Sequence record: NC_048112.1
Source: Escherichia phage Skarpretter
Strand: one strand, 5' to 3'
Length of the DNA stretch: 42,042 bases
Made by a program: the position numbers and the translations under genes. Shown here piece after piece: positions 3,938 through 41,007 of this stretch (positions are counted from its first letter, which is position 1; each line of letters starts with the position of its first letter). A model generated the notes under the pieces. The model worked only from the letters and a program-made list of their open reading frames with translations, was not told the origin of the DNA and ran no database searches.

Positions 3938-3982
3938 ACTATACACTTAAACGTGAATATCTGTTTTAGCAATTTGTGCTAT
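3938..3982 (-). promoter_or_regulatory. conserved promoter element driving SPFH gene
   Basis: Minus strand reads ATAGCACaaatTGCTAAA, 23 nt, TATAGT, tcaACTCAC, ~50 nt before ATG at 3893. Confidence 0.6.
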
Positions 3983-10342: not shown

Positions 10343-10346
10343 ATAA

Positions 10347-10372
10347 GGGGCCATAGCGGCCCCTTTTTTTTT
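10347..10372 (+). terminator. rho-independent terminator, likely bidirectional
   Basis: GGGGCC-atagc-GGCCCC followed by T9; lies between convergent HTH gene and tailspike gene. Confidence 0.8.
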
Positions 10373-24146: not shown

Positions 24147-24191
24147 ACTATAGCCCCATCCGTGGGGCTTGTCTTTAGCAAAAAGTGCTAT
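24147..24191 (-). promoter_or_regulatory. conserved promoter element driving the 24100 unit
   Basis: Minus strand ATAGCACttttTGCTAAA, 23 nt, TATAGT, ctcCTCACAttcac. Confidence 0.6.
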
Positions 24192-26428
24192 TCCTGGTTT
24201 GCGCTCTGCGCCGCTGCATTCAGGAGGCGATCCGCGTTGCGCTCGTCGGCCTGCTGCTGGTCGCGGGTAAACTGCTGCATAAGCTGGATCACTTCCACCA
24301 GCTGATCGTGCTTAATGCCTGCGGTTTTGGCGATGGTTTCCAGCGTCTGCGCGTCGGTCAAGCGTCCATCTTTCGCGGCTTTCTCTGCGGTCACTTGCAG
24401 GTTAAGCGCTTTGATGTTCAGATCCTTATCTTTCAACGCCAGATCGGTTTGCTTGTTCTGCGCGTTCATCAGATCAGCCGTGGCTTTCTTGTCCTCTGCC
24501 ATTGCTGCAACCATCATTGGATCAGGCTGGTTCTGTTTCGCTTCCTGCGCCTGCTGCAACATCGCTTTTTCTTCGTCCGTTTCCGGCTGAATAATGCCGT
24601 TCATAATCATCTGATTACGGCTATATTCGCGGAAGTCCTGCAACCCTTCGCCGTCCATGTTCATCAGGATCAGGCTCATGACGATCGCCGCGTTAGGATC
24701 TTGCGGGTTCATGGATTGTAACAGGTTGGTGAGGTTGCGCACCGTCGCCTGGCGGCGGGTTTGGCTGCTCTCGCCTACGCTGCTCTCAACTTCGTATTTG
24801 CCTTTGGTCAGGTCGTTTAGCGCGATCTGCTGTTTGGTCTTACGGTCGATTACTGCGCCCTGTAACAACACCATATCGTCGCTGCCGTCCTCATTCACGA
24901 CGCGGACATAATCGACGGAGCCGTAAACCTCGCGGGCCATTTCGAGCCATACTTTGCCAGCGTGGCGCAAGGATTTTGCGAGGTTGTCCATATACAGCGC
25001 CCCTTGTCCGTCCATGCGGGCAAAGATTGCCTCCACGGTTTCGGTTGCAAGGTTCGACGGCATAGATTCAACCTGGCTTGCGCCTACGATCTGTTGAATG
25101 GTTCCGCCCGTGTACTGGAGGATCGCGGCAAGGTTCGCGTTTAGCGGCGCTGAGGGGGTATAACCCAGCACGCCACCCGGCGCAATGATATTGCCTTGAT
25201 CGTCGCGCAAGCTCTCAACCGGAAGGTAAGCCGGGCGCTCCTTGTTACGGTTGCCCCACGCGTTAGCCAGCGGGCCGGGCACCATGTTTACATCAAGGAT
25301 CGGGATATTGTCGCCGCCTGCCTGGGTGGCGTTGTCCGCCAGCATGGAAACGATCAGGTTTTCCAGGCGCTGCGCGTCGGTTGCCAGCGTGGCGTGCCCT
25401 GCGATCCTTTCCTGGTTGTCAACGAATGAGCGGCGAGCGTATACCGGGATCAGCGGAATGTAACACCCTGGGATGCGCTCCATTGGCTCCAGCCATTCGC
25501 CACCACTGAGGACGCCGCAATAGATACGAGGTTTTTTTACTTTGCGCTCTTTGCCCTTTTTAAACCCGGCGTCGCGTAACTCGTCCTCGATCTTGGCGAT
25601 CTGATCTTCCTCATAAACCGCCGTTTCTTGCGTCATGGGGTTTTGATAGCTGATCACGGTGACTTCCTCGATCCGCTTCTCATAGTAGCGGGCAAGGTAT
25701 ACCGCGTCCGGCGTACACCAATCAAATTGCTTGCCAGTGTCCAGCATTTCGAGGCTTTCCGGGGCCATAGCCGTTGGGTATTGCTCCTCGTATGCGTCCG
25801 GGTCAATGCTGAAAAGCTCCGTTGCCCACATAGCATCGCTGCGATCGTACTGCTTTGAGTTCTGATCAAAGAATACGCACGACGCCGGATCGTATACCGG
25901 GTGGAAAGTAATATGCCGCGCTTCGCTGTCCGGGTTGTACTCGTCCTCTAAACAGGTGTCCATGCGGAAGCAACCAAACCCGCCCGTTACCGCGTCGTCA
26001 AAGGCGTTATCGATCGCCTCGCACCCGCTGGACTCGTTGAAGTCGGCGCGAAATTTGCCGTTCAGCTTGTCGGCTAACTCCTCGGACGCTTCGCCGTCTT
26101 TCGGGCGATAGGTGACGTTTACGCGGTTTAGGCGGTAATCGGTGATAATGCGATCGACTTCACGCGCCAGCTTGTTAAGCTCAAAGCGCGGGTATTTTTT
26201 AAACCGATCGTCGTCCATGTTCCAGCCGGAGTTGGTCGATCCTTCCCATTGTGCGCCGGGCACGCGGACGAATCGCAACACCTCGATCATTTTCTTACGG
26301 CTGGTTTCCTCGTTCGCAAACTGCGTTGAGATACGTTTACGGGCGCGGGCGTGTTCCTTGTCCTCGCTCTTGCTCATTTTACGCGGGGTTTTCCCCTCGT
26401 TGGTTTCCAGGTCGTTACGGTCTGCCAT
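24188..26428 (-). CDS. portal protein (P22 gp1-like)
   Basis: ~746 aa; YRPKDGEASEELADKLNGKFRAD (P22 [22 protein letters not shown]), FFDQNSKQYDRSDAMW (P22 IWDSNSKLMDKSDARH); likely ATG at 26428 with AGGGGAG SD. Confidence 0.85.
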   Translation of the reverse strand: MADRNDLETNEGKTPRKMSKSEDKEHARARKRISTQFANEETSRKKMIEVLRFVRVPGAQWEGSTNSGWNMDDDRFKKYPRFELNKLAREVDRIITDYRLNRVNVTYRPKDGEASEELADKLNGKFRADFNESSGCEAIDNAFDDAVTGGFGCFRMDTCLEDEYNPDSEARHITFHPVYDPASCVFFDQNSKQYDRSDAMWATELFSIDPDAYEEQYPTAMAPESLEMLDTGKQFDWCTPDAVYLARYYEKRIEEVTVISYQNPMTQETAVYEEDQIAKIEDELRDAGFKKGKERKVKKPRIYCGVLSGGEWLEPMERIPGCYIPLIPVYARRSFVDNQERIAGHATLATDAQRLENLIVSMLADNATQAGGDNIPILDVNMVPGPLANAWGNRNKERPAYLPVESLRDDQGNIIAPGGVLGYTPSAPLNANLAAILQYTGGTIQQIVGASQVESMPSNLATETVEAIFARMDGQGALYMDNLAKSLRHAGKVWLEMAREVYGSVDYVRVVNEDGSDDMVLLQGAVIDRKTKQQIALNDLTKGKYEVESSVGESSQTRRQATVRNLTNLLQSMNPQDPNAAIVMSLILMNMDGEGLQDFREYSRNQMIMNGIIQPETDEEKAMLQQAQEAKQNQPDPMMVAAMAEDKKATADLMNAQNKQTDLALKDKDLNIKALNLQVTAEKAAKDGRLTDAQTLETIAKTAGIKHDQLVEVIQLMQQFTRDQQQADERNADRLLNAAAQSANQE

Positions 26429-26478
26429 TCTCGGCGCTCCCCTTGTTGATTCTGGCAAAGTCTAACATGATGCGAAAA

Positions 26479-26522
26479 ATAGCACGAATTGCTAAAGCAT
26501 TTCACGTTAAAGTGATTATAGT
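26479..26522 (+). promoter_or_regulatory. conserved promoter element driving the 3-gene cassette
   Basis: ATAGCACgaatTGCTAAA, 22 nt, TATAGT, aatCTCACAttcac, ~35 nt before ATG at 26557. Confidence 0.6.
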
Positions 26523-26556
26523 AATCTCACATTCACGAACAAATGAGGGCTTTAAA

Positions 26557-26763
26557 ATGTTAACTTTCGTAATCGTTGTTGCGGCGCTGTCCTGGATCGT
26601 CTGCTCATGGCTCGTTGGCGCGGCTGCTGGGCGGTACTTCGCCAGCCCGGTTTGCGCGTGGGTCTACCTGGGCGTTTCGCTGGTGCTGTCGCCGCTGGTG
26701 GGCCTGCTGGTGCTGTTTGGCTCTCACCTGCTGGACTACATCGAATCGCGGGGCCGCGCATGA
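26557..26763 (+). CDS. small membrane protein (two predicted TM helices)
   Basis: 68 aa, two hydrophobic helices; GAGGG SD; ATGA overlap with next ORF. Confidence 0.55.
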   Translation: MLTFVIVVAALSWIVCSWLVGAAAGRYFASPVCAWVYLGVSLVLSPLVGLLVLFGSHLLDYIESRGRA

Positions 26764-26933
26764 AACGTAAAGAGCGGTTAAGCCTGCTGGCAGTGCGCAA
26801 CCTCGCGGCGGGCTGTCCGCCGTCAAAGATCCCCGGCCCTGCGTCGCGCATGGACTGCGAGGAAATTATAACGGAGTTGGCCCAGCGTTACGTGCGGCTC
26901 CTGGATAAAGTCAACGCTATGAAATACAGGTGA
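26760..26933 (+). CDS. small hypothetical protein
   Basis: 57 aa, translationally coupled (ATGA); shares ELAQR motif with following ORF. Confidence 0.45.
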   Translation: MKRKERLSLLAVRNLAAGCPPSKIPGPASRMDCEEIITELAQRYVRLLDKVNAMKYR

Positions 26934-26937
26934 TAAG

Positions 26938-27123
26938 ATGGACGAAATAACGATAAGCATTATCGATCAGCTTGCGGACGGCGTGCCGTTTTACGATCTC
27001 CTCTCCGGGTACGATAGCGAATCGCTGATCCAGGAGTTGGCCCAACGCTTACGCGATGCCAACGACGAGATCGAAAGCCTGGGTTATGAGGTGATGGAAT
27101 TACAAGATCCGGGGAGTTCATGA
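26938..27123 (+). CDS. small acidic hypothetical protein
   Basis: 61 aa, AGGTGATAAG SD, followed by terminator. Confidence 0.5.
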   Translation: MDEITISIIDQLADGVPFYDLLSGYDSESLIQELAQRLRDANDEIESLGYEVMELQDPGSS

Positions 27124-27124
27124 A

Positions 27125-27152
27125 AACAGGGGCCATTGCGGCCCCTTTTGCG
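27125..27152 (+). terminator. rho-independent terminator (bidirectional position)
   Basis: GGGGCC-attgc-GGCCCC followed by TTTTG; between convergent cassette and terL 3' end. Confidence 0.7.
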
Positions 27153-28793
27153 TTAGTAGTTGCTCGGTACGTTGTACCCGGAGTAATCCGGCTTGATCAC
27201 CTTCTGCGGCGGCTGCATCGTCATGATCAGGCTATCCGCCATGCCCGGCGATTTGATTTTCAGCTTTGTACGCATCTGAGGCTTAGGCATGCGGGAAAAC
27301 TTGCCGTTTGCGTTGTAGATCCTCGGAATGCGGCAAAGCTCCGCACGTAGCTTGCTCATGTACTCCCCGATCCCGTCGCTGTCCAGGCTGATCAACTCGT
27401 CCGGGTTGATGTAAAGCGTTTCGCCTTTGTCCAGTGCTGCTATCACCTGGGCGGTTTTCTCAAAGCGTCGGCGTAACAGGTAAATATCTTGCGATCCACG
27501 GTTGGCGAATACGTCGCTATTGCTGCTCGCGTTCTTCCCTTCGGTTGGGTTGTTCAGCCACTTATCAAGCTCTACGGGGGCGTCCGGGAATTTCACGCCG
27601 TCGCCTGCGTTGTAGCCCTCAACCATTACCGGAGTGTTGGCGTAAGCGTCAGTAAGCTGGCGGCGCAAGCCTGCGCCCAAACCTGCCCTATCCCACATCA
27701 GCGCGTCAACGTGCGCGGCTTTGGACTCTGCGATCGCCACGTCTGCGGCGTCGTTCGCGTCACCCTCCAGCCAGGACAAACCACGAGTAACCACGGAGCC
27801 GTGCCGGACGATAAACGCTTTGTTATCCTCGCCAACGTCTGCCGGGTCGAGTGCGCCAATCTTCATGCCGGACGGCTTAAACCCGATCCGCTTGTGGGCG
27901 TCGATCGCTGCATCAAACCATTCAGCCGGGATAATCGCATCCGGCACGGAGTCATTGAAAGCGCCTTTCCAGATATGATCGAACAACGCACGGGAAAGCG
28001 TTTTAAAGTCGTATTCCATTTCAGCCCGGAGCGACGCCGGAAACCACGGGTTTTTGTCGTAGTTCACTTTGATCACGAGGTGTAGATCGTCCTCGTAGAT
28101 CCCGTCTTTGTCCAGGGCGTCCGTAAACGGCACGATGAAACGTTTACTAAATGGATCTTCACTGCTGCCGGGGTTGGCGGTGAAGATCATATAGCCCCCT
28201 TCCTCACGCATGGTTGGGGTCAGCTTGCGTAATGACTCCTCGGAAAAGGTCTGCGCCTCCTCACCCCAAAAGCGTTTAAACCCATAGGACGATTTCACGC
28301 CGTCCGGGTCGCGGGCCATACCTTTAAAGACGTGCAAGCCGCCGTTGACGTGGCGGATCTCGTCTTTCATCACTTCGAAACCGTCATACCCGGCACGCTC
28401 GATCATCTGCGAAAGTAGCGGGTGTACGGAGTATTTAATAGCGGTCTGAAACTCGCGGAGGTTCATCACCTTTACGGCGTCGTCGTTCACGTCACCGTTA
28501 AGGATCATCCCGGTTGAGTCGGATTTACCGGAGCCACGGCCCCCGATCACGATGTTAAAGCGTTTGGGGCGCGTTAAGAGCGGCTCCAGCACTTCGGGGA
28601 TCGTGACGTGGTGAGGCTTATCGGTTTCCACCCAGCGGTGGCCCTTTTTGGTGATGTTCTTTACGTGTTCCGGCAAGCCGTTTGCGCCGGGTCGGTAAAT
28701 GCCATAAACCGTGCGGGTGTAGGTGCTAATGTGTCGCGCTTTGGCCTCTGCTGTCGCCATGCGCTGCATGATCTGCTTTAGGTTACGCCCCAT
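27153..28793 (-). CDS. terL: terminase large subunit
   Basis: 546 aa; Walker A IVIGGRGSGKSDS, acidic nuclease-domain residues; directly upstream of portal. Confidence 0.85.
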   Translation of the reverse strand: MGRNLKQIMQRMATAEAKARHISTYTRTVYGIYRPGANGLPEHVKNITKKGHRWVETDKPHHVTIPEVLEPLLTRPKRFNIVIGGRGSGKSDSTGMILNGDVNDDAVKVMNLREFQTAIKYSVHPLLSQMIERAGYDGFEVMKDEIRHVNGGLHVFKGMARDPDGVKSSYGFKRFWGEEAQTFSEESLRKLTPTMREEGGYMIFTANPGSSEDPFSKRFIVPFTDALDKDGIYEDDLHLVIKVNYDKNPWFPASLRAEMEYDFKTLSRALFDHIWKGAFNDSVPDAIIPAEWFDAAIDAHKRIGFKPSGMKIGALDPADVGEDNKAFIVRHGSVVTRGLSWLEGDANDAADVAIAESKAAHVDALMWDRAGLGAGLRRQLTDAYANTPVMVEGYNAGDGVKFPDAPVELDKWLNNPTEGKNASSNSDVFANRGSQDIYLLRRRFEKTAQVIAALDKGETLYINPDELISLDSDGIGEYMSKLRAELCRIPRIYNANGKFSRMPKPQMRTKLKIKSPGMADSLIMTMQPPQKVIKPDYSGYNVPSNY

Positions 28794-33401: not shown

Positions 33402-34973
33402 TCAGCGTTCAGCCAGCGGCGGCGGCGATGCGTCGTTAGCCGTCAAAATCTCCTCGCCGTCATTGTTGATAAACGAGCGGATCAGCTGCTTTTTGATCGC
33501 GTTCTCGATCGAGCGCTTGATCTGGTATGGCGTTTTCGCGGTGCGCTCCGCCATTTGGTTTGTGGTGTCCATGCGTTCATGCTGCCCGCCGCGTGCCATG
33601 AGGAAATCGATCACGTCCTGCTCGCTGTTGCTCGGCCTGGTGAGTCTCGGATCTGGCTTGTTCTTCGACTCGCCGCGCTGCGCTTTCTTCTGCTCCTCCT
33701 GCTGCGCTACCAGTTCAGCGGCTAACGTCGCCTCGTCCACCAGTTCGCACGCGTTCAGGTAGCCACCACAAAACAGCGGGTCAATCGGGTTAAGTCCTTT
33801 CAGCGGCTGCGCTGGGCGGATCGAATCCTCAAACTCTGCGAGATATTCCGCCCGGTGCGCTTCTGCTTCGTCGTCCGGGAAGATCTGCATTGTCCGTTTA
33901 GTCAGGCGCAAGAGTTGGGCGATCCCCCCACCACGGCGCTTGCCTGCTGCCATGATGATTTTATCCGGCTGGGTTTTGTCCTGCGTGAGCGAAAACGTTT
34001 TCCAAACCGCACCCTTTGCCGCGCCACCTCCGCGTGACTCCAGCACGAGATAAGGCGATCGCTCGGCCTCCTTGCTTACGTGGGGAATGAAGATCCCGCA
34101 CGCTCCCAGCGCCAGGGCAAAGCGATAACCGCAAAACGTAATGTACTGCTGATCGTCGTTGCTGTTTTCGTCCAGGGGTTTACCGTTGCGCTCGGCGCTG
34201 GATAGGTGAAAACTCTTTGAGTCATAAACAACCATGCACACCTGGCGATCCCCGGCAAAGTCTTTGATCTGGCGGATCTGGCGTAATGCGTTCTCACCCC
34301 ATACCGGGCGATCGAGTTGTACGACGCGCTCAACCTCGCGCCCGTCCGGGCCGATCTCTTTCACGGTCTTAACTTTGGTTGTGTCGGTCAGCGCTGCGGG
34401 GTGCTCGCAGATCAGGACGTGATCCAGGATGTTTTCGCCCCACTCCAGTTGCCAGGCGGAAAGGCAGTTAGTGACGGTTTCGGCGTCCTCGGTAAAAAAC
34501 ACGCTGATCCCTTTCTTCACCATGAAAGCATCCAGGAAAGGTCTACCCGTTGCCACGCACGCCGCCAGCATGGACAAGAGCGTAGTTTTGCCCACGCCTG
34601 GCCCGGCGTTGATCTCGTTGATCGTGTTCATGTTAAACAGGTATTGCACAAACGGCTTTGGGATCTTCGGTTTCGGGTTCTCAATGAATACGGAGGCGGG
34701 CTTACGCTCCGGCTTTGGCTGCTGCGGGCCTGCGTCCTCGTTGTCCGGCTCGTCCACCTGCTCGGAGTGATCGGCAAGGCGTGCTAACTCCGCGTCGCTA
34801 TAGTCGGGAGCCTGCGCCGCTAACCACTCCTCCGGCATGTCCGGCACGGTGTCGCCCAACTCTCCCCAGGTCTGCATGTCCTCGTAATCCGGCTCGAATT
34901 GCTCCGGCTCCGGGGTTGGCTCCTGCTGCTGTAAAGAGCCGTTGCCACGGTGTTTTGTGGGGTCGAATTTCAT
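33402..34973 (-). CDS. P-loop NTPase (RecA/DnaB-like Walker A), possible replicative ATPase/helicase
   Basis: 523 aa; acidic disordered N-terminus, Walker A NAGPGVGKTTL, Walker B-like VCMVVYDS; first gene of leftward operon. Confidence 0.65.
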   Translation of the reverse strand: MKFDPTKHRGNGSLQQQEPTPEPEQFEPDYEDMQTWGELGDTVPDMPEEWLAAQAPDYSDAELARLADHSEQVDEPDNEDAGPQQPKPERKPASVFIENPKPKIPKPFVQYLFNMNTINEINAGPGVGKTTLLSMLAACVATGRPFLDAFMVKKGISVFFTEDAETVTNCLSAWQLEWGENILDHVLICEHPAALTDTTKVKTVKEIGPDGREVERVVQLDRPVWGENALRQIRQIKDFAGDRQVCMVVYDSKSFHLSSAERNGKPLDENSNDDQQYITFCGYRFALALGACGIFIPHVSKEAERSPYLVLESRGGGAAKGAVWKTFSLTQDKTQPDKIIMAAGKRRGGGIAQLLRLTKRTMQIFPDDEAEAHRAEYLAEFEDSIRPAQPLKGLNPIDPLFCGGYLNACELVDEATLAAELVAQQEEQKKAQRGESKNKPDPRLTRPSNSEQDVIDFLMARGGQHERMDTTNQMAERTAKTPYQIKRSIENAIKKQLIRSFINNDGEEILTANDASPPPLAER

Positions 34974-35074: not shown

Positions 35075-35118
35075 ATAGCACGAATTGCTAAAACAGCTTT
35101 ATGAATACTATGTATAGT
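35075..35118 (+). promoter_or_regulatory. conserved promoter element driving plus-strand island
   Basis: ATAGCACgaatTGCTAAA, 22 nt, TATAGT, tatCTCACAccaac, 32 nt before ATG at 35151. Confidence 0.6.
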
Positions 35119-35710: not shown

Positions 35711-35754
35711 ATAGCACGAATTGCTAAACGCCGCGTCTAAATACTATGTATAGT
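35711..35754 (+). promoter_or_regulatory. conserved promoter element
   Basis: ATAGCACgaatTGCTAAA, 22 nt, TATAGT, tatCTCACAccaac, before ATG 35788. Confidence 0.6.
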
Positions 35755-36431: not shown

Positions 36432-36887
36432 ATGAAACCACAAGAGATCAAAAAGGCGGGCATCTTCTCAAAGGATGATATTCACTGCTTCACTGACTGC
36501 GGCTACAACTGCAAGGCAAAGGTAAGGGCTGATCTTGAGGCGCATTACGCGCCAATCGCTGCGGCGCTGGGTAACGGCTGGCGCGTTAACATCTGGCACA
36601 ACGGCGGCTGGCACGCTAACCTGGCGCATGATGAATCACAATTTTACCTGAGCGATCGAGCGGTGCGCGGCGGTATCAGTGCAATGAAGGTGGACGCCGA
36701 TCGGTTTGAGGACAACGTAAACCGCTTTGAGGTGTTCAATTACGAATACCCGGAGGGCACCAGCCAGGTTTGGGTGTACGGTAACGATCCGAAAGACGCG
36801 ATCCGCAACGCCTTTAACGCCGTGTCGGAGCGGGTAGTAGCCTACATGGTGCAACAACAAAAGATCCTGGACGCTTTCCCCGGATAG
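36432..36887 (+). CDS. hypothetical protein
   Basis: 151 aa, Trp/Asn/Gly-rich; stop codon lies inside next promoter palindrome. Confidence 0.55.
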   Translation: MKPQEIKKAGIFSKDDIHCFTDCGYNCKAKVRADLEAHYAPIAAALGNGWRVNIWHNGGWHANLAHDESQFYLSDRAVRGGISAMKVDADRFEDNVNRFEVFNYEYPEGTSQVWVYGNDPKDAIRNAFNAVSERVVAYMVQQQKILDAFPG

Positions 36888-36927
36888 CACTTTTTGCTAA
36901 ACGCTCCTCGTAAATACTTGGTATAGT
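36884..36927 (+). promoter_or_regulatory. conserved promoter element
   Basis: ATAGCACttttTGCTAAA, 22 nt, TATAGT, tctTTCACAccaac, before ATG 36959. Confidence 0.6.
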
Positions 36928-36958
36928 TCTTTCACACCAACACGAGGAGCGAAACAAA

Positions 36959-39282: not shown

Positions 39283-39833
39283 TGTGGGGCGCGATCCTGG
39301 CCCTCCTGCGCCGATACTGGAAGCCGATCGCCGTAATCCTCCTCGTGCTGCTGGCGCTGGGGGGATCTTACCTTAAAGGCTCGGCTGATAAGGATCAGGA
39401 ATGGCAAGCGCGATGGACACAACGCGATCTGGACGATTCCACCCAGAAAGGGATCGATAATGTAGCCGCCCGGATAATTGAACAAGGCCGGGCCATTGAA
39501 CGCCAGGAGGCGATCGAGGATGCACAAAAACGGGAAGCCGCCGCGCTGGCTGCTGCTGATCGGTTGCGTGGTACTGTTGACGGCCTGCAACAACTCGCCA
39601 ACAAATACGCGGCCCAACTGGACGCCCAGCGGGCAACCACTGATCTTGCCGCTGCCGTCGCAAGCAAAACAAAAGCCCAGGGGGCCGGAGTGCTCGCCGT
39701 CATGCTCGGAAGCGTTGCAAAGGAAGCTGAATATTATGCTAAACGATCTGACGAAAGCTACGACGCCGGGCTAACCTGCGAGCGGCTTTACGAGTCGGTG
39801 AGGGTGACGCAAGAAAAAGTCAAGGGGCCATAA
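39282..39833 (+). CDS. Rz: i-spanin (Rz-like)
   Basis: 183 aa; N-terminal TM helix, periplasmic coiled-coil; TAATG coupling with R. Confidence 0.7.
   Translation: MWGAILALLRRYWKPIAVILLVLLALGGSYLKGSADKDQEWQARWTQRDLDDSTQKGIDNVAARIIEQGRAIERQEAIEDAQKREAAALAAADRLRGTVDGLQQLANKYAAQLDAQRATTDLAAAVASKTKAQGAGVLAVMLGSVAKEAEYYAKRSDESYDAGLTCERLYESVRVTQEKVKGP
39520..39774 (+). CDS. Rz1: o-spanin (Rz1-like) lipoprotein embedded in +1 frame of Rz
   Basis: ~84 aa from internal ATG; signal peptide with lipobox (LIGC / LTAC), Pro-rich mature region. Confidence 0.55.
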   Translation: MHKNGKPPRWLLLIGCVVLLTACNNSPTNTRPNWTPSGQPLILPLPSQAKQKPRGPECSPSCSEALQRKLNIMLNDLTKATTPG

Positions 39834-39848
39834 CGGCCCCTTTTTTTA
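39822..39848 (+). terminator. rho-independent terminator (bidirectional position)
   Basis: GGGGCC-ataac-GGCCCC followed by T7; between Rz and convergent Ig-like gene. Confidence 0.8.
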
Positions 39849-40674: not shown

Positions 40675-41007
40675 TTACTGCGTTATCTTGCCAGCCTTAA
40701 CCCATTTAACGCGCCTGTTAGCCACTGAGGCAAGCGGACGCTCTAAACGTGCGGCAATCTCTTTGGTTGTTACGCCCTCGTTTGCCAACTCGATCAACGC
40801 CTGATCCTCCGTGCTTTTCCAGTATTCGAAAGATCGGGCCGCTTTCATGTCGAGGCCCAAATAGCGCCCCCGATTCTGGATCGAGTTGAGCGGACGGCCC
40901 AACTTGTGCGCAAGCTGTTTGGCGGTTAAGCGCTCCTCTTTCGGCAATGCCGCGTTACTGATCAGCGCCTGATCCTCTGCTGCGGTGTACTGTTTCCCGT
41001 TTGGCAT
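40675..41007 (-). CDS. DNA-binding protein with two tandem Myb/SANT-like HTH repeats
   Basis: 110 aa; repeats AEDQALIS...TAKQLAHKLGRPLNSIQNR and TEDQALIEL...TTKEIAARLERPLASVANRR resemble the Myb repeat W-x-EDQ-x-IEL...IA..L...R. Confidence 0.5.
   Translation of the reverse strand: MPNGKQYTAAEDQALISNAALPKEERLTAKQLAHKLGRPLNSIQNRGRYLGLDMKAARSFEYWKSTEDQALIELANEGVTTKEIAARLERPLASVANRRVKWVKAGKITQ

Follow-up and report, generated by a model that had tools for sequence, protein, structure and literature searches.

The window analysed here is the whole sequence of Escherichia phage Skarpretter (NC_048112.1; 42,042 nucleotides), and our subject is a small cassette at positions 26,479 to 27,152, in which three open reading frames (ORFs) on the plus strand lie between two genes read from the minus strand, the gene for the terminase large subunit (terL) and the portal gene. 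Skarpretter is a lytic isolate obtained on Escherichia coli K-12 MG1655 (PMC7552041), with a genome of 42,042 bp and 55.8% GC (PMC7552041; bioRxiv 10.1101/2020.01.19.911818). Its nearest relative is C130_2 (PMC7552041; bioRxiv 10.1101/2020.01.19.911818), and the two are reported to form a monophyletic pair (bioRxiv 10.1101/2020.01.19.911818). The GC content of the whole window is likewise 55.8%. A preliminary description of this DNA had regarded the three genes as inserted between terL and portal, with a promoter element and a terminator of their own, and had named superinfection exclusion, a toxin-antitoxin pair and anti-defence as candidate roles. The three ORFs are present as it described them (Table 1), and no paper discussing them was found in the literature that we searched. 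In phage P22 itself, portal comes directly after terL. How did another set of genes come to lie at this junction, and what may they be doing there?

Table 1. Features in and around the cassette, the small-gene modules A to E, and the gene content of related terL-portal junctions. L-numbers label the loci compared; TM and TM' are the transmembrane-protein genes of the Skarpretter and the C130_2 type, respectively.
Feature	Position	Strand	Remarks
Portal	24188-26428	-	P22_portal 1e-159; downstream flank, parted from terL by the insertion; start probable
Promoter-like element of the cassette	26480-26533	+	TAGCACGAATTGCTAAA-N20-TATAGT-N4-TCACA
TATAAT	26515-26520	-	perfect; complement of ATTATA, overlaps the plus-strand TATAGT; directed toward portal
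Shine-Dalgarno GAGGG	26545-26549	+	7 nt before the ORF1 ATG, read from the sequence
ORF1 (TM)	26557-26763	+	68 aa, two predicted transmembrane segments; constant first gene of the cassette
ORF2 = HOU67_gp31	26760-26933	+	57 aa, basic, helical; module B; start overlaps the ORF1 stop (ATGA)
ORF3 = HOU67_gp32	26938-27123	+	61 aa, very acidic, helical; module C; AGGTGA Shine-Dalgarno
Bidirectional intrinsic terminator	27128-27146	both	AGGGGCC-ATTGC-GGCCCCT; serves the cassette (+) and terL (-)
terL	27153-28793	-	Terminase_3 2e-26, phrog_2; upstream flank of the cassette
Copies of the promoter motif	3965-3981(-), 24174-24190(-), 26480-26496(+), 35076-35092(+), 35712-35728(+), 36885-36901(+)		
Module A			55-58 aa, RYRC...GDCMEKDPQG-WV...LRQRIAKLEKQ; phrog_35516, 3e-14; not in the window
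Module A, Vibrio phage Ares1	54932-55096		outside the junction
Module A, ICP1	60056-60163		outside the junction
Module A, Lumpael	36793-36936		outside the junction
Module B			gp31 type
Module C			gp32 type, 50-72 aa
Module D			68-aa Lar restriction-alleviation protein; PF14354 2.5e-12, 47.3 bits against a cut-off of 28.6; phrog_599
Module E			43-44 aa
Window			TM+B+C
L017, L025			TM+B
L026			TM+B, followed by ~50 nt resembling ORF3 where the contig ends
L018, L020			TM+C
L022, L023			TM+A+C
L012-L016			TM+A+D+E
C130_2			TM'+E
L008, STP9, L034			TM'+A
L036			TM' alone, terminator directly after it

About 20 related loci were compared at the junction, with the identities of the flanks taken over 600 nt of portal and of terL. 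In six phages of neighbouring groups, Sortsnevirus and Murrayvirus included, no gene stands between terL and portal and the gap is 0-37 bp, which bears out the word "inserted"; the six are Sortsne, IME279, KMB41, IME_EC2, Kosakonia phage Kc166B and Pseudomonas phage AH02. The corresponding distance in the window, from the terL stop to the portal start, is 724 bp. The cassette is present in C130_2, which belongs to Hungariovirus, in STP9 (an unannotated record of an 'UNVERIFIED_ORG' Stutzerimonas phage, OR754315.1, our L004/L005), and in every Skarpretter-like contig examined. Identity of C130_2 and STP9 to the window is ~74% at the nucleotide level in the head genes and 71% at the amino acid level in terL, and terL is 64-67% identical in Sortsnevirus and Murrayvirus and ~50% in the Kosakonia phages. 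The comparison with related genomes that had been proposed thus finds the unit restricted to Skarprettervirus and Hungariovirus, with intact terL-portal adjacency in their neighbours. Its absence from related genera marks the unit as an insertion that these two alone have, and not as a part of core morphogenesis. One insertion in their common ancestor would be the simplest history. The insertion also puts a bidirectional terminator between terL and portal.

What the unit contains differs from one close relative to the next. All homologs of ORF1, ORF2 and ORF3 that we found lie at the same terL-portal junction. The transmembrane (TM) gene, of 65-69 aa, comes first in every Skarpretter-like and C130_2-like locus examined, and once it stands alone. 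It exists in two types, that of Skarpretter and a very divergent one of C130_2, which agree in length, position and promoter. Behind it follow the modules A to E in changing combinations (Table 1), and this happens despite portal and terL flanks that are, in the Skarpretter-like loci, 89-96% identical to those of the window. The flanks of the sister phages with a Lar gene in the unit are ~93-95% identical to the window. A universal and essential core gene set, which the preliminary description had given as the finding that would speak against it, is thus not what these genomes hold. Outside the junction, module A occurs in ~80-kb Vibrio siphophages, ICP1, Lumpael and Murrayvirus, and because it sits there at unrelated positions, the slot behind the TM gene is suggested to recruit mobile small genes. 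It is to be noted that some of these genes are overlooked in annotation: the Lar ORF (L012:4380-4586, plus strand, and likewise in L013-L016) was missed by gene callers, as was module E in L012 and L013.

Are such small ORFs genuine genes? In comparisons with homologs, the substitutions in all three concentrate at the third positions of plus-strand codons, and the ratios of nonsynonymous to synonymous substitution rates (dN/dS) range from 0.02 to 0.72, one saturated pair being undefined. ORF1 to ORF3 are genuine genes under purifying selection; codon-position pattern and dN/dS together rule out that they are non-coding or artefactual. ORF1 differs from its ortholog in L020 at 1, 0 and 14 sites in the first, second and third codon positions (dN 0.007), and it spans the whole dN/dS range of 0.02-0.72 against its homologs. 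gp31 has dN/dS of 0.14-0.17 and differs from its L025 ortholog at 4, 3 and 17 sites. Two minus-strand ORFs that overlie the cassette (99 aa and 73 aa) were discounted, for the substitutions obey the plus-strand codon phase. In base composition the cassette does not stand out, as its GC content is 57.5% (genome, 55.8 ± 3.3%) and its GC content at third codon positions (GC3) is 0.63-0.77, compared with 0.70-0.71 in terL and portal. An origin from foreign DNA on grounds of composition was accordingly rejected. The region matches no Rfam family and holds no tRNA, and the portal leader folds no better than shuffled sequences.

ORF1, with a charge of +0.6 and an isoelectric point (pI) of 7.8, shows two hydrophobic peaks of 2.54 and 2.48 in Kyte-Doolittle means over 17 residues, with an Arg-containing loop between them. 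The two-TM protein of 68 aa that had been described at this place is therefore borne out by its hydropathy, and its topology in the membrane is a prediction from the sequence. The AATGAGG at its ribosome-binding site is kept in a three-way alignment. Among the Skarpretter-like loci the gene is 72-92% identical at the nucleotide level, as against 89-96% for the flanks. The second TM segment (AWVYL-VSLVLSPL-G) and the tail (DY-E-RG) are strongly conserved, which suggests a specific interaction of ORF1 rather than the work of a passive anchor. Its relatives are few: homologs fall into three clusters among 5.8 billion proteins, and a profile hidden Markov model run against 1.8 billion representatives returned two junction orthologs and one spurious protein of 2919 aa, and failed to reach the C130_2-type TM protein. 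The BLASTP link between the Skarpretter-type and the C130_2-type proteins consists of a 13-residue VG-AAGR stretch only. ORF1 has no match in Pfam, PHROGs, NCBIfam or PADLOC, and megablast and tblastn searches with ORF1 and ORF3 against a phage collection that does not include Skarpretter gave nothing. The exact 68-aa sequence is missing from a collection of 15 billion proteins in which gp31 and gp32 of Skarpretter are present, so that the public record of Skarpretter apparently lacks an annotation for ORF1.

The two soluble proteins are annotated publicly as "hypothetical" only, ORF3 being 100% identical to HOU67_gp32, a hypothetical protein of Escherichia phage Skarpretter. gp31 has a pI of 9.9 and a charge of +5.5, and gp32 a pI of 4.05 and a net charge of -13.5 at pH 7. 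The motif ELAQR had been seen in both of them, and both indeed have it, the coding sequence being a 15-nt repeat, GGAGTTGGCCCA[G/A]CG, with one mismatch. The likeness goes beyond this motif: the B and C families can be aligned from end to end, as a helix, LA-G-P, a loop, D-E--I-ELAQR and a long helix, and hhalign compares them with 70% probability and an E-value of 4e-5 over 43 columns. AlphaFold2 models of the two proteins share a common architecture, with a predicted local distance difference test (pLDDT) score of 90 for gp31 (helices 9-16, 27-30 and 33-55) and of 76 for gp32 (helices 3-13, 18-21 and 27-56). gp31 and gp32 are diverged paralogs, then, of which the former has become strongly basic and the latter strongly acidic. 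Each is found without the other, so that neither obliges the phage to carry its partner. Apart from themselves, homologs form two clusters for ORF2 and four for ORF3. Neither protein gave anything above noise in Pfam, PHROGs, NCBIfam or PADLOC; profiles of the B and C families against PDB sequences gave coiled-coil noise only, and when the two AlphaFold2 models were compared with PDB and BFVD by Foldseek, nothing but the self-hit came back.

How is such a unit expressed? Upstream of ORF1 lies a promoter-like element, of which TAGCACGAATTGCTAAA at 26480-26496 holds the dyad TAGCA-N5-TGCTA, and TATAGT occupies 26517-26522. In its general form the motif reads TAGCAC-N3-TTGCTAAA-N20/21-TATAGT-N4/5-TCACA and covers ~50 bp. 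Its 17-mer is found six times in the window, where 0.26 occurrences would be expected; all six can be aligned over ~50 bp and each lies just 5' of a Shine-Dalgarno sequence and an ATG, the copy at 24174 on the minus strand coming directly after the portal stop. At syntenic sites of C130_2 the motif occurs seven times, and it is absent from the whole Sortsne genome. The promoter stretch of the cassette is 84% identical to that of C130_2 and 89-98% to those of the Skarpretter-like loci, and it is the best conserved part of the unit, above ORF1. A scan for the sigma-70 consensus found none in the scanned region, the stretch upstream of the cassette included. TTGCTA is not a -35 hexamer, because 22-23 bp separate it from TATAGT, and with the empty scan this rules out a sigma-70 reading. 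A sigma-54 reading of TAGCAC-N3-TTGC was rejected as well, since it has AG in place of GG, its two elements would need to stand 2 bp farther apart, and 22 bp downstream of it a TATAGT is conserved. The dyad would centre near -41/-42, as in activator-dependent promoters, and the motif is suggested to represent a putative, clade-specific class of such promoters. Its activity as a promoter is predicted from these features. A protein of 110 aa (40675-41007, minus strand) has sub-threshold matches, at 22.7 bits, to Sigma70_r4_2 (sigma-70 region 4) and to helix-turn-helix (HTH) domains, and it matches the position of C130_2 gp16, annotated as "transcriptional regulator"; this HTH protein is a candidate for the factor that acts on the repeated motif.

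At the other end of the cassette, the terminator hairpin is called on both strands and has a 7-bp GC stem of about -15 kcal/mol. AGGGGCC-N5-GGCCCCT recurs in three near-identical copies, at 10346-10364, 27128-27146 and 39823-39841 (0 expected), each at one of the genome's three convergent gene-block junctions, and the hairpin of the cassette is kept in C130_2, L008 and STP9. As to the promoter and terminator that had been ascribed to the cassette, a repeated promoter-like motif and a hairpin do bracket the genes, and no sigma-70 consensus accompanies them. A foreign or generic promoter is not what lies there, since the motif is the phage's own repeated one and the terminator its standard one. 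From these native signals and the native composition, we therefore see a well-integrated unit rather than a compositionally foreign island.

Two starts were considered for the portal gene, TTG 26458, which gives the longest ORF (756 aa), and ATG 26428 (MADRNDLE..., 746 aa). The latter is probably the true start and TTG 26458 wrong, because GGGGAG lies 8 nt before the ATG and the 746-aa product matches relatives; the intergenic region would therefore be 26429-26556. Within it, on the minus strand, stands the perfect TATAAT of Table 1. The ATTATAGT form from which it arises is unique to the junction copy of the motif and conserved in both clades, and a weak -35 element, TTGTTC, precedes it with a 16-nt spacer. 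It is reasonable to take this as a candidate divergent promoter for portal that compensates for the insertion. At the other end of portal, the promoter copy after its stop (24147-24190, minus strand) has a GC hairpin within its spacer, and this hairpin shows compensatory changes between the clades, GCCCCAcggaTGGGGC vs GCCCGCttcgGCGGGC (in C130_2, our L019, it lies near 34796 on the minus strand); a terminator for portal appears to overlap the next promoter there. In the Skarpretter-like contig L022, gene calling broke portal (L022:1704-3832, minus strand) into two ORFs, 394 and 325 aa long, that overlap, probably because of a frameshift or an assembly error. The STP9 record, for its part, is essentially a C130_2-like enterobacterial phage whose TM protein shares 92.5% identity with its C130_2 counterpart, and it has been linearised exactly within the cassette terminator, so that its module A is split over both ends of the record.

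What, then, may the cassette do? The proteins of the cassette resemble no characterised protein by sequence or fold, and any statement on function therefore rests on context. The points of context that we use are that the shared head and packaging machinery can do without the unit, that the content of the unit turns over rapidly, that a Lar gene occupies the slot in sister phages, that gp32 is acidic, and that a small membrane protein comes first. On these points we lean, slightly, toward an accessory host-interaction unit that serves anti-defence, superinfection exclusion or both. Both roles are plausible. As to anti-defence, which had been proposed from the beginning, the evidence found is indirect, namely Lar (PF14354 2.5e-12) in the same unit of sister phages and the extreme acidity of gp32.

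Several known systems resemble such a unit in part. Morons, a concept of Hendrix and Juhala for lambdoid and HK97-like phages, include HK97 gp15, a small membrane protein for superinfection exclusion. Like a moron, the cassette is extra DNA between genes that are adjacent in relatives, encodes small accessory non-virion proteins with a small membrane protein first, and would form a unit of its own with a promoter-like motif and a factor-independent terminator. Unlike morons, it belongs to a virulent phage without expression from a prophage state, it uses the repeated signals of the phage and not a sigma-70 moron promoter, its composition does not deviate (57.5% against 55.8 ± 3.3% GC), and it is a multi-gene slot shuffled between close relatives. 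Genes 0.3-0.7 of T7 form an early anti-defence cluster that includes Ocr, an acidic mimic of DNA. Clusters of this type share with the cassette small, non-essential and quickly exchanged genes whose content differs between otherwise near-identical genomes, and very acidic small proteins and small membrane-associated proteins can occur in them; the cassette, in contrast, lies within the packaging and head module and not at the leading end of the genome. gp32 (61 aa, with the charge and pI given above) is strongly acidic as the DNA mimics Ocr and ArdA are, but has no similarity in sequence or fold to Ocr, ArdA or any solved structure. T4 Imm and P22 SieA are small proteins of the inner membrane that bring about superinfection exclusion. 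ORF1 is, like them, a phage-encoded membrane protein not needed for the structure of the particle, it is small like Imm, and Skarpretter carries DNA-ejection proteins of the P22 type; unlike them, it has no detectable homology in Pfam, PHROGs or NCBIfam, and its profile search found junction orthologs only. As for Lar/RalR (PF14354; Lar of the Rac prophage), a gene of the family stands in the variable slot of the same unit in L012-L016, and by this analogy it suggests the kind of gene that is recruited there.

Some observations weigh against a role in host interaction. No cassette protein of the window is similar to any characterised anti-defence, exclusion or other protein in Pfam, PHROGs, NCBIfam, PADLOC, PDB or the fold searches. 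The window cassette has no Lar gene, its three ORFs showing neither a match to PF14354 nor the CxxC...CxxC zinc ribbon, so that the link to Lar is positional only, and guilt by association with Lar is weak evidence. The TM gene is invariable within the clade, which could mean a housekeeping role in this lineage. The native base composition gives no sign of a recent foreign origin. Finally, the same promoter motif also heads the head genes and the block that holds the lysis genes; for this reason the cassette may be expressed in the middle or late phase, and not at the time that is classic for anti-restriction. As the motif precedes DNA-metabolism genes too, it could serve as a general signal or as one for middle/late genes.

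Might ORF1 instead control lysis and its timing, as a membrane protein akin to a holin, pinholin or antiholin, with its soluble partners as modulators? ORF1 and its C130_2-type counterpart are both small (66-69 aa) and have two TM segments. The C-terminal tail is strongly basic in the C130_2 type, which together with its Gly-rich second TM segment recalls class II holins, and net neutral in the type of the window. The block with lysis genes at its downstream end, which the promoter motif heads, is also on the plus strand. We nevertheless consider this role unlikely. Skarpretter has a lysis cassette of its own at ~38.5-39.8 kb, with holin/antiholin, lysozyme and endopeptidase, and C130_2 likewise has its own holin and endolysin. 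ORF1 is neither next to nor linked to an endolysin and matches no holin family of Pfam or PHROGs, the positive charges in the loop between its TM segments do not fit pinholin topology, and phages of the Sortsne type lyse without it.

Next, the products might help assembly in this lineage alone, by aiding packaging or the incorporation of portal, for example through tethering to the membrane. The place of the cassette within the head and packaging module is as expected from this, as are the use of the same motif before the post-portal head genes and the presence of the TM gene in every clade member examined. Sister genera with homologous terL (64-67% at the amino acid level), portal and coat, however, do entirely without the cassette, and its soluble genes are interchangeable or missing. 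The sequence of ORF1 changes more quickly than the flanks do (nucleotide identities of 72-92% and 89-96%, respectively), which is unlike an assembly partner of conserved proteins, and we regard a helper in assembly as somewhat less probable still than a role in lysis.

The ORFs could also be mere passengers of a regulatory insertion, in which a terminator and a divergent promoter uncouple the transcription of portal and the head genes from that of terS-terL. This would account for the intergenic promoter region being the best conserved (84-98%), for a bidirectional terminator that also ends terL transcription, and for a perfect minus-strand TATAAT specific to the junction, aimed at portal and kept in both clades. 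Passengers would not be expected to stay under purifying selection, as these ORFs do, or ORF1 never to be lost, and the repeated gain of different small genes, Lar included, is left unexplained; we think this improbable as well, slightly more so than a helper in assembly. Least of all do we expect a toxin-antitoxin or abortive-infection-like system, with ORF1 as toxin and a downstream protein as neutraliser, for, although a small hydrophobic protein is followed by translationally coupled small proteins (ATGA overlap), one basic and one acidic, the TM gene has no constant partner, standing with B, C, B+C, A, A+C, A+Lar+E, E or alone (L036), a near-identical ORF1 (dN 0.007) stands with C only in L020, and PADLOC matches nothing, so that this earlier suggestion is not sustained.

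An accessory unit for host interaction, toward which we lean, would work as follows. A moron-like, self-contained and non-core unit would have been inserted once between terL and portal, laid out as its own promoter motif, a strong ribosome-binding site, a constant two-TM inner-membrane ORF1, interchangeable cytoplasmic genes and the standard terminator. Its genes would act on the host, and each independently, rather than on virion assembly. At the inner membrane, ORF1 would most likely exclude a superinfecting phage or neutralise a membrane-associated host factor, and the soluble modules, as small proteins, would inhibit host defence or host nucleic-acid enzymes, in analogy to Lar of the sister phages. 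When the proteins are taken one by one, ORF1 as an exclusion protein or an inhibitor of a membrane target is a tentative assignment, and gp32 as an acidic inhibitor or decoy is a guess of about the same weight. A further, speculative thought is that ORF1 and the gp31/gp32 pair found new families of counter-defence or exclusion proteins, the slot being a "plug-in" site for anti-defence genes and the motif a clade-specific, activator-dependent promoter system. If this were so, ORF1 might block the entry of related podoviruses or disarm a membrane-bound host defence, and gp32 and gp31 might be diverged inhibitors of different host defence proteins that target nucleic acids.

Judged from the sequences compared here, the cassette looks like a hypervariable accessory locus, which is a known kind of locus, made of orphan proteins. 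Few features point to undiscovered anti-defence proteins as well as a hypervariable slot that is flanked by conserved genes and takes up known anti-restriction genes. In the Skarpretter locus, purifying selection acts on three orphan proteins of very small size; as the phage grows on K-12, the locus is easy to test, and the natural "swap" variants allow comparison across sister phages. It also shows how the genomes of this clade are wired, with a standard promoter in six copies and a standard bidirectional terminator in three, and how the insertion has split the terL-portal operon, for which a divergent promoter seems to compensate. Should the functions prove ordinary, better annotation would be the main gain, ORF1 being apparently missing from the public record. 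Such a locus will not surprise a specialist; still, it is a clean candidate for new small proteins of anti-defence or exclusion.

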